Positions 29,447 through 46,736 of a DNA stretch of 64,000 nt are shown here, in pieces. Positions within the stretch are counted from its first letter, which is position 1; the number at the start of each line of letters is the position of its first letter. The DNA lies in NCBI GenBank assembly GCA_951406725.2, contig OX597817.1, positions 13,578,001-13,642,000 on the forward strand. The letters are read 5' to 3'. The notes below the pieces were generated by a model, which made no database searches, had not been told where the DNA came from, and saw only the letters and a program-made list of their open reading frames with translations. The stretch is from Octopus vulgaris. Taxonomy: Eukaryota. The translations under genes and the position numbers were made by a program.

Positions 29447-29841
29447 CTAGCAGTATCGCCTGGCGTTGCTCGGGTTTGTAAGGGAAATAACTATATAAGC
29501 ATTTTTAGAGATGTAAAGTATAATAGCCATCTCAATATGGCTAACCACAAAGGGGGTGTTACTGTAGCTTTTTACGTTCTGAGATTTAATAATACATTTT
29601 TAGCGAGTTACTTCCCTTATATAATAGTAAAAAAAATGCATTCAAAATGGGAAAAAATGATGGTAAATTTTTTTTTAAATCGTAGACTCATCGTAGACGC
29701 GCGCTAATATCCAGAAGGGCTCGATATGAATCACGACTATAAGATACCCGGTTTTGGTTAAACTGCACCGCAAAATGTGGGAGTAGTTAGGAATCTAAAT
29801 TGTAGGAGACAGACACACAACTTCACTTTTATATATAAAGA
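29447..29841 (-). mobile_element. Non-autonomous Helitron carrying a retrozyme fragment, nested in a mariner-like MITE (~29368-29982)
   Basis: TC...hairpin-CTAG termini at an A|T site; near-identical to 33427-33822. Confidence 0.82.
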
Positions 29842-33426: not shown

Positions 33427-33822
33427 TCTTTATATATAAAAGTGAAGTTGTGTGTGTCTGTCTCCTACGATTTAGATTCCTAACTACTCCCACATTTTGT
33501 GGTGCAGTTTAACCAAAAGCGGATATCTTATAGTCGTGATTCATATCGAGCCCTTCTGGGTATTAGCGCGTGTCTATGATGAGTCTACGATTTAAAAAAA
33601 ATATTACCATCATTTTCCCCCATTTTTAATGAATTTTTTTGCTATTATATAAGGGAAGTAACTCTCTAAAAATGTATTATTAAATCTCAGAACGTAAAAA
33701 GCTACAGTAACACCCCCTTTGTGGTTAGCCATATTGAGATGGCTATTATACTTTACATCTCTAAAAATGCTTATATAGTTATTTCCCTTACAAACCCAAG
33801 CAACGCCGGGCGATACTGCTAG
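33427..33822 (+). mobile_element. Non-autonomous Helitron carrying a retrozyme fragment
   Basis: A|TCTTTATATATAAAA...CCCAAGCAACGCCGGGCGATACTGCTAG|T. Confidence 0.85.
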
Positions 33823-42025: not shown

Positions 42026-42258
42026 TATTTCTTTATTACCCACAAGGGGCTAAACATAGAGGGGATAAACAAGGACAGACAAAGGTATTAAGTCGATTAC
42101 ATCAACCCCAGTGCGTAACTGGTACTTAATTTAATCGACCCTGAAAGGATGAAAGGCAAAGTCGACCTCGGCGGAATTTGAACTCAGAACGTAACGGCAG
42201 ACGAAATACGGCTACGCATTTCGCCCGGCGTGCTAACGATTCTGCCAGCTCGCCGCCT
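42026..42258 (-). mobile_element. SINE family B
   Basis: TSD TAAAGAGGAGATATG. Confidence 0.85.
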
Positions 42259-42908
42259 TGTAAAGAGGAGATATGAAGTATTAACACAACTTGAACGTGG
42301 CATAAAAAATAACAACAAATCAACTTTTAGATGAAGTCATTTGATTATTACAGGCAGCTACAGTTTCCACAAAGATTGAGGACTGGATTCAGATGTTCCA
42401 ATCGATTAGAAAGCAAAAGGGAATTACTGCTAATCAATCAATCAATCAATAAGAATCAAGAGAATCCAACAGGCCATACAATAATGAATGATATCAATAG
42501 AAAGAAAATATAATGAGCAGTCAATGGTTGGGTTTGTCTGAGTTTGAACCTTGCTGAAAATCAAAGCTTTTATAACTTTGTAGTTAGAGTGCATTTAATA
42601 CATTTAATAAACTATTTATGAGATCTTTTACACTGGGCCAGTCTAGACCAGTGTTTCTCAAACTATTTGATGGGGCGTACTGGCAGTTTTTTCCCCAATG
42701 TACCAGGAACCGGTAATATTTCTTAGTAATATTAATTTATACCAGAAACAATATATATAATGTAAACTATACTAGCCATCTCAATATGGCTAACCACAAA
42801 GGGTGGGTGTTACTGTAGCTTTTAGCCCCAGGAGATCATCGTCTCCAGCTGGCTTTAGACACACTTTCTGTGCCCTTATGGTATTTGCAAAGGGAGGTCA
42901 TCCCTCTC

Positions 42909-42990
42909 TCGTAAACCTAAGTGATACGCACGGACTGCAGTTTCGAGGTAATTTGCCTCTTGTCAACGTACGGTAATCACCGGTTTACGA
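42909..42990 (-). ncRNA. Type I hammerhead ribozyme, unit 1 (U3-A8 core variant; predicted cleavage 3' of the GUC at 42935-42933)
   Basis: minus strand reads UCGUAAACC-G-GUGAU-UAC-CGUACG-UUGACAA-GAGG-CAAAUUA-CCUC-GAAA-C-UGCA-GUC-CGUGCG-U-AUCAC-UUA-GGUUUACGA; stems I, II and minimal III all pair. Confidence 0.88.
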
Positions 42991-43263
42991 TGAAAGGAAG
43001 ACCTGTTTGCAAATACTTATGGGTTTTTCTAGTAACTTCCGTCATTGATTTCGAAAAACTGTCTGCAAGCAATAATAAATCTCTGAATGAGATGTAAACA
43101 GTAAGCGCTCGACAATGTAAAGTATACTCAGCCATCTCAATATGGCTAACCACTAAGGGTGGGTGTTACTGTAGCTTTTAGCCCCAGGAGATCATCGTCT
43201 CCAGCTGGCTTTAGACACACTTTCTGTGCCCTTATGGTATTTGCAAAGGAGGTCATCCCTCTC

Positions 43264-43345
43264 TCGTAAGCCTAAGTGATACGCACGGACTGCAGTTTCG
43301 AGGTAATTTGCCTCTTGTCAACGTACGGTAATCACCGGTTTACGA
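43264..43345 (-). ncRNA. Hammerhead ribozyme, unit 2
   Basis: same core as unit 1; GUC at 43290-43288. Confidence 0.86.
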
Positions 43346-43618
43346 TGAAAGGAAGACCTGTTTGCAAATACTTATGGGTTTTTCTAGTAACTTCCGTCAT
43401 TGATTTCGAAAAACTGTCTGCAAGCAATAATAAATCTCTGAATGAGATGTAAACAGTAAGCGCTCGACAATGTAAACTATACTAGCCATCTCAATATGGC
43501 TAACCACTAAGGGTGGGTGTTACTGTAGCTTTTAGCCCCAGGAGATCATCGTCTCCAGCTGGCTTTAGACACACTTTCTGTGCCCTTATGGTATTTGCAA
43601 AGGGAGGTCATCCCTCTC

Positions 43619-43699
43619 TCGTAAGCCTAAGTGATACGCACGGACTGCAGTTTCGAGGTATTTGCCTCTTGTCAACGTACGGTAATCACCGGTTTACGA
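43619..43699 (-). ncRNA. Hammerhead ribozyme, unit 3 (loop II 1 nt shorter)
   Basis: same core; GUC at 43645-43643. Confidence 0.84.
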
Positions 43700-43973
43700 T
43701 GAAAGGAAGACCTGTTTGCAAATACTTATGGGTTTTTCTAGTAACTTCCGTCACTGATTTCGAAAAACTGTCTGCAAGCAATAATAAATCTCTGAATGAG
43801 ATGTAAACAGTAAGCGCTCGACAATGTAAAGTATACTCAGCCATCTCAATATGGCTAACCACTAAGGGTGGGTGTTACTGTAGCTTTTAGCCCCAGGAGA
43901 TCATCGTCTCCAGCTGGCTTTAGACACACTTTCTGTGCCCTTATGGTATTTGCAAAGGGAGGTCATCCCTCTC

Positions 43974-44055
43974 TCGTAAGCCTAAGTGATACGCACGGAC
44001 TGCAGTTTCGAGGTAATTTGCCTCTTGTCAACGTACGGTAATCACCGGTTTACGA
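43974..44055 (-). ncRNA. Hammerhead ribozyme, unit 4
   Basis: same core; GUC at 44000-43998. Confidence 0.86.
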
Positions 44056-44328
44056 TGAAAGGAAGACCTGTTTGCAAATACTTATGGGTTTTTCTAGTAA
44101 CTTCCGTCATTGATTTCGAAAAACTGTCTGCAAGCAATAATAAATCTCTGAATGAGATGTAAACAGTAAGCGCTCGACAATGTAAACTATACTAGCCATC
44201 TCAATATGGCTAACCACTAAGGGTGGGTGTTACTGTAGCTTTTAGCCCCAGGAGATCATCGTCTCCAGCTGGCTTTAGACACACTTTCTGTGCCCTTATG
44301 GTATTTGCAAAGGGAGGTCATCCCTCTC

Positions 44329-44410
44329 TCGTAAGCCTAAGTGATACGCACGGACTGCAGTTTCGAGGTAATTTGCCTCTTGTCAACGTACGGTAATCAC
44401 CGGTTTACGA
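44329..44410 (-). ncRNA. Hammerhead ribozyme, unit 5
   Basis: same core; GUC at 44355-44353. Confidence 0.86.
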
Positions 44411-44683
44411 TGAAAGGAAGACCTGTTTGCAAATACTTATGGGTTTTTCTAGTAACTTCCGTCATTGATTTCGAAAAACTGTCTGCAAGCAATAATAAAT
44501 CTCTGAATGAGATGTAAACAGTAAGCGCTCGACAATGTAAACTATACTAGCCATCTCAATATGGCTAACCACTAAGGGTGGGTGTTACTGTAGCTTTTAG
44601 CCCCAGGAGATCATCGTCTCCAGCTGGCTTTAGACACACTTTCTGTGCCCTTATGGTATTTGCAAAGGGAGGTCATCCCTCTC

Positions 44684-44765
44684 TCGTAAGCCTAAGTGAT
44701 ACGCACGGACTGCAGTTTCGAGGTAATTTGCCTCTTGTCAACGTACGGTAATCACCGGTTTACGA
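44684..44765 (-). ncRNA. Hammerhead ribozyme, unit 6
   Basis: same core; GUC at 44710-44708. Confidence 0.86.
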
Positions 44766-45038
44766 TGAAAGGAAGACCTGTTTGCAAATACTTATGGGTT
44801 TTTCTAGTAACTTCCGTCATTGATTTCGAAAAACTGTCTGCAAGCAATAATAAATCTCTGAATGAGATGTAAACAGTAAGCGCTCGACAATGTAAACTAT
44901 ACTAGCCATCTCAATATGGCTAACCACTAAGGGTGGGTGTTACTGTAGCTTTTAGCCCCAGGAGATCATCGTCTCCAGCTGGCTTTAGACACACTTTCTG
45001 TGCCCTTATGGTATTTGCAAAGGGAGGTCATCCCTCTC

Positions 45039-45120
45039 TCGTAAGCCTAAGTGATACGCACGGACTGCAGTTTCGAGGTAATTTGCCTCTTGTCAACGTA
45101 CGGTAATCACCGGTTTACGA
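45039..45120 (-). ncRNA. Hammerhead ribozyme, unit 7
   Basis: same core; GUC at 45065-45063. Confidence 0.86.
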
Positions 45121-45395
45121 TGAAAGGAAGACCTGTTTGCAAATACTTATGGGTTTTTCTAGTAACTTCCGTCATTGATTTCGAAAAACTGTCTGCAAGC
45201 AATAATAAATCTCTGAATGAGATGTAAACAGTAACCGCTCGACAACGTAAAGTATACTCAGCCATCTCAATATGGCTTAACCACTAAGGGTGGGTGTTAC
45301 TGTAGCTTTTAGCCCCAGGAGATCATCGTCTCCAGCTGGCTTTAGACACACTTTCTGTGCCCTTATGGTATTTGCAAAGGGAGGTCATCCCTCTC

Positions 45396-45477
45396 TCGTA
45401 AGCCTAAGTGATACGCACGGACTGCAGTTTCGAGGTAATTTGCCTCTTGTCAACGTACGGTAATCACCGGTTTACGA
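45396..45477 (-). ncRNA. Hammerhead ribozyme, unit 8
   Basis: same core; GUC at 45422-45420. Confidence 0.86.
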
Positions 45478-45750
45478 TGAAAGGAAGACCTGTTTGCAAA
45501 TACTTATGGGTTTTTCTAGTAACTTCCGTCATTGATTTCGAAAAACTGTCTGCAAGCAATAATAAATCTCTGAATGAGATGTAAACAGTAAGCGCTCGAC
45601 AATGTAAACTATACTAGCCATCTCAATATGGCTAACCACTAAGGGTGGGTGTTACTGTAGCTTTTAGCCCCAGGAGATCATCGTCTCCAGCTGGCTTTAG
45701 ACACACTTTCTGTGCCCTTATGGTATTTGCAAAGGGAGGTCATCCCTCTC

Positions 45751-45832
45751 TCGTAAGCCTAAGTGATACGCACGGACTGCAGTTTCGAGGTAATTTGCCT
45801 CTTGTCAACGTACGGTAATCACCGGTTTACGA
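45751..45832 (-). ncRNA. Hammerhead ribozyme, unit 9
   Basis: same core; GUC at 45777-45775. Confidence 0.86.
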
Positions 45833-46107
45833 TGAAAGGAAGACCTGTTTGCAAATACTTATGGGTTTTTCTAGTAACTTCCGTCATTGATTTCGAAAAA
45901 CTGTCTGCAAGCAATAATAAATCTCTGAATGAGATGTAAACAGTAACCGCTCGACAACGTAAAGTATACTCAGCCATCTCAATATGGCTTAACCACTAAG
46001 GGTGGGTGTTACTGTAGCTTTTAGCCCCAGGAGATCATCGTCTCCAGCTGGCTTTAGACACACTTTCTGTGCCCTTATGGTATTTGCAAAGGGAGGTCAT
46101 CCCTCTC

Positions 46108-46189
46108 TCGTAAGCCTAAGTGATACGCACGGACTGCAGTTTCGAGGTAATTTGCCTCTTGTCAACGTACGGTAATCACCGGTTTACGA
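46108..46189 (-). ncRNA. Hammerhead ribozyme, unit 10
   Basis: same core; GUC at 46134-46132. Confidence 0.86.
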
Positions 46190-46736
46190 TGAAAGGAAGA
46201 CCTGTTTGCAAATACTTATGGGTTTTTCTAGTAACTTCCGTCATTGATTTCGAAAAACTGTCTGCAAGCAATAATAAATCTCTGAATGAGATGTAAACAG
46301 TAACCGCTCGACAACGTAAAGTATACTCAGCCATCTCAATATGGCTTAACCACTAAGGGTGGGTGTTACTGTAGCTTTTTCATATATATAATGAATGTAA
46401 TAAAAGTTGACAATTTTTATCTTATATTTATTTTGTAAACAAATAATACAATATTACATAAGCATTTTATATTGTCTCTTTCTTTTTTGGAAACTCACTG
46501 CATACCAGCAGCTGATGACTCATGGACCGGCACCGACTCAGAGACCACCACTTTGAGTAGCACTGGTCTAGACAATAATAATTCTCCTGTTACCAGCATC
46601 TATACCCGCTATGTTTCAGAATTTACCAAAATGGCTAATTTAGATTTATTTCTCCATGATCACGAAAGGATTACAGTGCATTTAATATATTTAATAAACT
46701 ATTCATGAGATCTTTTATACTGGGCTTAGTCTAGAC

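Follow-up and report, generated by a model that had tools for sequence, protein, structure and literature searches.

The window analysed here, a 64-kb stretch of octopus DNA, contains a tandem array of short non-coding units on its minus strand, each with one hammerhead ribozyme motif. The array and the parts of its leftmost hammerhead are laid out as follows:

42763..46381, minus strand: 355-bp non-LTR retrozyme unit repeated 10.2 times in tandem, the terminal unit being partial (TRF and unit comparison)
42751..42762, plus strand: left target-site duplication ATATATATAATG, its final bases overlapping the unit end
46382..46393, plus strand: right target-site duplication ATATATATAATG
42927..42972, minus strand: type I hammerhead of the leftmost unit (descriptor scan)
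43321, 43675, 44031, 44386, 44741, 45096, 45453, 45808 and 46165, minus strand: starts of the remaining nine hammerhead cores
42960..42966, minus strand: catalytic core U3 U4 G5 A6 C7 A8 A9
42934..42941, minus strand: palindrome ACUGCAGU, spanning stem III and loop III, through which adjacent units are predicted to pair in an 8-bp helix
42932..42933, minus strand: predicted cleavage site after GUC (hammerhead numbering applied to the descriptor match)
42905..43000, minus strand: extended stem I, which has a UAC/U internal loop and whose arms also close the monomer into a rod

TRF called the array at 42759-46379 with a period of 355, 10.2 copies and 99% matches, and comparison of the units gave a mean identity of about 99.1%, so that a property of "all ten units" counts as one observation. 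Since ATATATATAATG flanks it on both sides, we regard the array as a single insertion, and its 12-bp target duplication exceeds the 4-bp threshold for non-LTR retrozymes. The other hallmarks of that class are found as well: a short tandem non-coding unit, one type I hammerhead in each and a dispersed multicopy distribution. There is no open reading frame of 120 aa or more within the array, no tRNA gene in the 64-kb window and no LINE insertion in the array. Positions within a unit are given below as q, counted from 43130 downwards, which places ATCG at q140, the core at q165, the cleavage site after q198 and the end of the array at about q16. Three junction haplotypes alternate along the array, and their interleaving does not fit a simple roll around one circle as its origin; it points to template switching or later exchange. 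Elsewhere in the window, a 63-bp match to the terminal partial unit lies inside another repeat at 29510-29573 and 33697-33758 and bears the hairpin AGCCAT-CTCAAT-ATGGCT; these pieces may be a truncated retrozyme insertion carried along by the host repeat. Copies of an abundant SINE-like repeat are present at 42085-42240, 378-748 and other window positions and presumably resemble octopus SINEs.

A descriptor scan of both strands of the window returned 10 matches, one per unit and all on the minus strand. The initial annotation had described a UUGACAA core with U3 and A8 throughout ten units and an 8-nt palindrome in stem III, and both descriptions held: all 10 hammerheads have U3-A8, a stem I of 6 bp, a stem II of 4 bp and an identical stem III, with ACUGCAGU at 42934-42941. 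Read on the minus strand from 42972 to 42927, the leftmost motif consists of stem I CGUACG, core UUGACAA and stem II GAGG-CAAAUUA-CCUC, followed by GAAAC-UGCA-GUC, the predicted cut at 42933/42932 and stem I CGUGCG. The core boxes, 3-8 pair, GAAA, UH site, three helices and open helix I of a type I hammerhead are present in 10 of 10 units. Loop II reads CAAAUUA in nine units and CAAAUA in the unit with its core at 43675; the latter, together with the UAC/U internal loop, resembles what we take to be the canonical contact between loops I and II. Folding gave z-scores of -3.95 for the 96-nt region and -5.55 for the unit from cleavage site to cleavage site.

It had also been anticipated that such a motif would be invisible to CTGANGA searches. 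This is true by construction, but Rfam, which returned no hammerhead match at gathering score or at E up to 10, missed C3-G8 relatives as well, so that an Rfam match is not discriminating here. Weak Rfam matches to miRNAs were explained by hairpins and microsatellites. That U3-A8 is a known natural variant is already in print (PMC4209133, PMC3088659), and it was earlier shown to be active in vitro (PMC3088659). The anatomy of the window motif matches the canonical metazoan type I motif as given in PMC4209133, with 6 bp in helix I, 4 bp in helix II, 1-2 bp in helix III and a palindromic loop. A further hammerhead repeat with U3-A8, its stem III reading ACUAGU and its flanks unrelated, was seen at four loci of the genome (L052, L059, L060 and L077).

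Such a short, palindromic stem III had led the initial annotation to propose cleavage as a double hammerhead, with only multimers processed efficiently. Folding of natural adjacent units supports the first proposal in silico, in a manner that depends on the ends of the RNA. The self-duplex of ACUGCAGU is calculated at -11.1 kcal/mol versus +2.9 for the 2-bp hairpin, and in the monomer stem III has a probability (P) of 0.001, with +4.3 kcal/mol needed to reach the hammerhead fold. Natural dimers of adjacent units, folded from ATCG in an unconstrained ensemble, adopt the double hammerhead in 9 of 9 cases with P 0.94 when the RNA ends 30 nt past the second site; an end at 60 nt gives P 0.85-0.94, and one at 120 nt gives 0.74-0.94. 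Longer dimer RNAs gave 0.95, 0.78 and, for a 633-nt dimer, 0.03, while 8 natural dimers of other subfamilies ranged from 0.00 to 0.93 (both dimers from locus L035 at 0.00); in these models, the double fold depends on RNA ends. It beats two single hammerheads by 5.8-12.5 kcal/mol in 3 of 3 dimers. The unstable monomer stem III, self-complementary loop and swapped stem I of a double hammerhead are thus all predicted, subject to the same dependence on ends. Covariation in loop III goes in the same direction. Among 107 distinct rows of family sequences, the loop is a strict palindrome in 86 and self-pairing in 98 once G.U is allowed; it takes six palindromic forms (TGCA, CG, TATA, TCGA, TA and CGCG), of which those of 2 nt cannot close a hairpin. 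The central bases change together (GC, CG, AT), for which a monomer would have no need.

The claim that only multimers are processed efficiently went too far, because similar invertebrate monomers cleave: retrozyme monomers with a short stem III do so at 0.8/min (coral) and 0.1/min (mussel), and an axolotl motif with a 2-bp stem III was cleaved to 22% as a monomer in 1 h and much more as a dimer (PMC7229834). A hammerhead that works adequately as a monomer through loop I-loop II contacts and proteins, with the palindrome only adding speed, would accommodate these rates as well as the P of 0.94 for local stem I in our monomer fold; this stem would form first during transcription, an order that equilibrium folding ignores. 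We nonetheless judge this account improbable, given that loop III self-complementarity was kept through several sequence changes, 2-nt loops included, and that the axolotl motif performs far better as a dimer (PMC7229834). Cleavage is therefore likely dimer-favoured rather than dimer-only, and the first reading, right in direction, was overstated in degree. A dimer model for canonical metazoan type I motifs is in print (PMC4209133).

A search of the genome (2.8 Gb in 227 contigs) with the unit had 3,120 candidates at first look; 40 of them were scored. Exact patterns counted 1,345 cores in copies with the same stem II, that is, to the exclusion of relatives with other stems II: 583 C3-G8, 621 U3-A8, 104 U3-G8 and 37 C3-A8. 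Reversed-pattern controls had 0 matches in the genome. The 3-8 pair is Watson-Crick in 89.5% of these cores and in 97.2% once the U.G wobble is included, and mixed cores number 141 versus about 673 expected under independence, a count whose significance is overstated because the copies are not independent. U3-A8 is one of four coexisting 3-8 states, with Watson-Crick pairs dominant and the mixed states present as subfamilies. The original argument that the double change indicates selection draws support from these genome-wide figures and not from the ten near-identical units, which represent one event.

Since the copies are related, a tree was built for the 3-8 states from 212 candidate cores, of which 150 aligned over at least 170 nt and yielded the 107 distinct rows, the window unit included; it has no outgroup, so the direction of change is not readable, and the trait's own columns were kept in the alignment. 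On this tree the four states need 9 changes (U3-A8 6, C3-G8 4 and U3-G8 6), and the 7 C3-A8 rows group together in a single clade. Several amplified subfamilies, with TATA, TA and CTGG in loop III, are characterised by U3-G8. The C3-A8 loci that were fetched number 10, some of them in tandem, and all belong to one subfamily. This weakens the expectation that cores with a single change would be inactive or slow, for which we found no rates in the accessible literature. The spread of C3-A8 cores to at least 10 loci of one subfamily also means that amplification is no proof of an efficient core. From sequence comparison, the 3-8 pair is under constraint, yet single changes did not stop spread; mixed cores could have spread through slow but sufficient cleavage or with the help of a partner unit. 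Because the four natural 3-8 states sit on near-identical backbones, they allow the path of a compensatory change through its intermediates to be tested directly.

Upstream of the hammerhead, the units carry a second set of short elements:

42988..42991, minus strand: ATCG, putative transcription start and the exact LINE insertion site in other copies
43346, 43700, 44056, 44411, 44766, 45121, 45478, 45833 and 46190, minus strand: the same ATCG site in the other units
43752..43758, minus strand: ATCAGTG, 58 nt upstream of the ATCG at 43700, in the sole unit with the motif intact
43043..43049, minus strand: ATCAATG, the altered motif, as in nine of the ten units

The same motif lies at nearly the same distance from the starts of small nuclear RNA (snRNA) genes in this genome. 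ATCAGT(G/C) occurs at -57 to -61 in 17 of 20 U2 loci, the others being one variant and two loci preceded by a LINE, and the U2 upstream regions belong to three otherwise different types. In U1 loci the motif is found at -57 to -59 in 15 of 15, all in one cluster. A motif near -58 is common to U1 and U2 genes and intact in 1 of 10 window units; by chance it is expected at about 0.0003 per 4-nt window. Related upstream stretches, 57 distinct ones selected by pattern, have ATCAGTG in 32 cases, GCCAGTG in 15, ATCAGCG in 6 and other forms in 4, and the ATCAATG of the window in none. A second hammerhead family served as a test of prediction: ATCAGTG lies at -56 to -60 of its LINE site in 12 of 25 loci, with 2 one-base variants and the rest truncated, inverted, preceded by a LINE or without a core; the two families look distantly related, so that this test is not fully independent. 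These data suggest an snRNA-type promoter in the retrozyme unit, and we infer from its position alone that the motif is a proximal sequence element. A literature report of an snRNA-type promoter of hammerhead repeats was found, within the accessible passages, for newt satellite 2 only. LINE insertions and the U1/U2 motif point to one and the same base as the retrozyme start, which makes the proposed promoter directly testable.

Nine of the ten window units combine ATCAATG with a 7-nt loop II, so that the array may be a weak source. It could even be a silent or catalytically weak copy in which the uniform U3-A8 reflects recent copying from an active source elsewhere, as the altered motif and the loop II longer by one base in the same nine units would fit; mismatched C3-A8 cores spread too. 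With all 10 cores and stems intact, however, and one motif-intact unit located upstream of three hammerheads, we find this unlikely; it would apply to this locus and leave room for the family to be active. None of the listed sequencing runs is on record as RNA; family sequences were found within contigs of four runs guessed to be RNA, contigs that carry no strand, ends or level; a read-depth dip over the putative promoter part in these four runs is not counted as evidence.

The ATCG at q140 stands out for a further reason. Four loci with two hammerheads 5.6-7.4 kb apart each hold a LINE at q140-156 in sense orientation, with target duplications of about 11-19 bp; inverted hammerhead pairs 6-7 kb apart as the flanks of a Penelope element were ruled out, since the pairs enclose LINEs. 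In other retrozyme copies, ATCG is the site at which L1/Tx1-like LINEs have inserted in sense orientation. These LINEs have the layout of target-specific Tx1-clade elements, with a zinc knuckle in ORF1 and an APE endonuclease and reverse transcriptase (RT) in ORF2 (Pfam domains: zinc knuckle, APE endonuclease, RT, zf-RVT), and fall into families A and B that are about 82% identical; homologues found by homologue search came without clade names. For a survey of their flanks, we used the last 200 nt of each family as query and read the best 30 loci each, among 40 (A) and 41 (B) matches listed from 169 and 238 candidates, respectively. At least 4 of these 60 flanks (L109, L115, L139, L141) lie in the seed loci, and a few overlap earlier loci or nested insertions.

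Of these best 60 LINE 3' ends, the retrozyme site accounts for 50, the second hammerhead family for 4, U2 base 1 for 4 and sites elsewhere for 2. Among the best 30 of family A, 27 continue into the retrozyme from q137-140 (2 with internal deletions), 1 into a target duplication and another LINE and 2 into the second hammerhead family. In the best 30 of family B, the flank is the retrozyme in 19, a target duplication and another LINE in 3 and the second hammerhead family in 2; a further 4 lie at U2 (base 1 or the duplicated start), and 2 lie elsewhere. A single target accounts for 28 of 30 (A) and 22 of 30 (B) flanks, well in line with the share of more than 20% that marks Tx1-type specificity in PMC4494074. 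Rfam places full U2 genes right after the LINE in three loci, and one full-length LINE sits between a U2 upstream region and the U2 gene with a 14-bp duplication; the U2 cases are confined to two clusters (C3 and C23) and so possibly reflect only two events.

The LINEs would settle at ATCG to sit under the promoter. That their site is chosen by endonuclease preference alone (approximately ATC-N6-YGG), with no targeting role for the -58 motif, has nearly even prospects in our estimate. ATC-N6-YGG is common to all three target classes, and U1 genes as well as two C3-G8 subfamilies sampled in L031-L050, all without ATCG at the corresponding place, do not occur among the 60 flanks; Tx1-type targeting is set mainly by the endonuclease (PMC4494074). 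Against this, all three target classes bear the motif at -58, and only 2 of 60 insertions lie outside hammerhead repeats and U2 although the shared sequence is short: YATCG-N5-YGG had 2 matches in 238 kb, extrapolating to about 23,000, a rough figure as both may be retrozyme relics. A LINE group inserting at ribozyme repeats and U2 base 1 is in any case a candidate for promoter-guided integration. No report of LINEs targeting retrozymes or snRNA starts was found in the literature searched, with most subscription papers, Repbase and supplements outside its scope; two sources with a possible bearing on this are the "satellite" targets shown in figure 3 of PMC4494074 and the lists that supplement the retrozyme papers. 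As far as we found, no LINE target of this type, a single base in ribozyme repeats together with base 1 of U2, has been in print before.

Some LINEs are stacked at the same target (L104, L110, L141, L143, L145, L165), the newer copy at its predecessor's duplicated start, and the 3' ends in L101-L104 stop shortly past AATAAAG with no poly(A) tail. A further type of LINE 3' end occurs at the ATCT start of the second hammerhead family (L258, L270, upstream of 1495). The core of this family (L249-L273, e.g. L264:1491-1600) is CCGAUGA, with C at position 4, in 23 of 23 cores read, and its stem III region, ACAUGCGUGU, is self-complementary.

Copy ends were mapped in 38 of the 50 loci L051-L100, the 12 overlapping ones being left out. 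They cluster at q58-64 (16 loci) and q12-16 (10 loci), in 22 of 38 loci in all; the other mapped loci were too divergent to place, 3 of them without a match. Copies ending at the cleavage site are thereby ruled out, and the clustering away from it fits priming inside a circular or multimeric RNA. Five loci combine an inverted piece with an 11-15 bp target duplication in AT-rich DNA. Tandem as well as inverted truncated copies, fixed 3' ends and AT-rich targets, the marks of Penelope mobilisation, were all found; tandem and inverted layouts and a microsatellite bias are Penelope traits (PMC8557442), and retrozymes derive from Penelope-like elements (bioRxiv 10.64898/2026.07.22.740005). The genome holds many intact 781-aa frames with RT and GIY-YIG, that is, young elements, and Penelope-like 3' repeats carry minimal U3-A8 hammerheads of their own with core UUGAUAA and palindrome ACAUGU, ending at (TA)n:

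L235:5166-5215, also L211, L213, L214, L217, L222 and L228: Penelope-like elements with minimal U3-A8 hammerheads near their 3' ends

No sequence common to retrozyme and Penelope-like element was found in 40 GIY-YIG loci (150 of 6,136 candidates scored); two matches in this partner search were ruled out as separate retrozyme relatives in the flanks, and a likeness of the 3' ends was discarded as too short. In two copies, a further frame of 479 aa, which has no clear family, is found at L235:581-2017 and L239:618-2054, upstream of the Penelope-like frame of 781 aa.

L1-type enzymes also yield target duplications of about 12 bp and 5' inversions, and the retrozyme could in principle be mobilised by the L1/Tx1-like LINE instead of a Penelope-like element. 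We consider this very improbable, as the LINEs are site-specific at ATCG whereas retrozymes lie in AT-rich DNA and (TA)n runs like Penelope-like elements, and tandem and inverted layouts are Penelope hallmarks (PMC8557442).

Taken together, the array is probably a single non-coding retrozyme insertion with a U3-A8 double hammerhead, a likely snRNA-type promoter and likely Penelope-like copying. With ATCAGTG at -58 as the directing element, in parallel to the U1 and U2 genes of the same genome, Pol II would start transcription at ATCG, which lies 25 nt ahead of the core. When transcription reads through into the next unit, the ACUGCAGU palindromes of both units are predicted to pair with each other and their stem I arms to exchange partners; the two full cores formed in this way would set free a monomer of 355 nt, which by analogy with published retrozymes would circularise. 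A Penelope-like RT/GIY-YIG protein may then prime at one of two fixed points and copy more than one unit into AT-rich DNA. In a broader reading that we hold as possible, if on balance somewhat doubtful, hammerhead retrozymes would be snRNA-promoter genes, and a LINE lineage guided by the promoter complex to +1 of retrozymes and U2 would take that promoter and may use the downstream hammerhead for its RNA end, while the family would record switching between C3-G8 and U3-A8 via viable U.G and C.A intermediates. The U3-A8 core and dimer cleavage are already published; the promoter motif, LINE targeting and four coexisting core states are, as far as we found, new.

We found no report of hammerheads in octopus in the literature, and octopus, molluscs and cephalopods do not appear in the accessible main text of bioRxiv 10.64898/2026.07.22.740005. 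The closest counterparts are the mussel, coral and axolotl non-LTR retrozymes (PMC7229834, Cervera and de la Pena 2020). Their non-coding units, 150-450 bp in length (350-390 bp in mussel), are likewise arranged in tandem and hold a single type I hammerhead each; low GC, long target duplications and a self-paired monomer are further common traits. The octopus family, known from DNA, differs in its U3-A8 core, four 3-8 states and located promoter-like motif. The same U3-A8 covariation is seen in the minimal hammerheads of Schistosoma Cercyon Penelope-like elements (Cervera and de la Pena 2014, PMC4209133; about 1,300 U3-A8 motifs); those motifs are minimal and mostly single, unlike the canonical 6/4/2-bp motif in a tandem retrozyme described here. 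Newt satellite 2, a hammerhead satellite of about 330 bp with dimer cleavage and an snRNA-type Pol II promoter, as cited in PMC2220036, resembles the octopus retrozyme in its hammerhead repeat, dimer cleavage (predicted here) and snRNA-type promoter (putative here). It differs in being from a vertebrate, in its 1-bp stem III and in that the accessible passages mention no LINE targeting. Among LINEs, Keno is an APE-endonuclease element specific for U2 genes; the targets of other Tx1 families are transposons, satellites and microsatellites (PMC4494074). Within U2, Keno and Utopia have their insertion point before nucleotide 39 (PMC4640811), in contrast to the octopus LINEs, which insert at U2 nucleotide 1 and mostly in hammerhead retrozymes.
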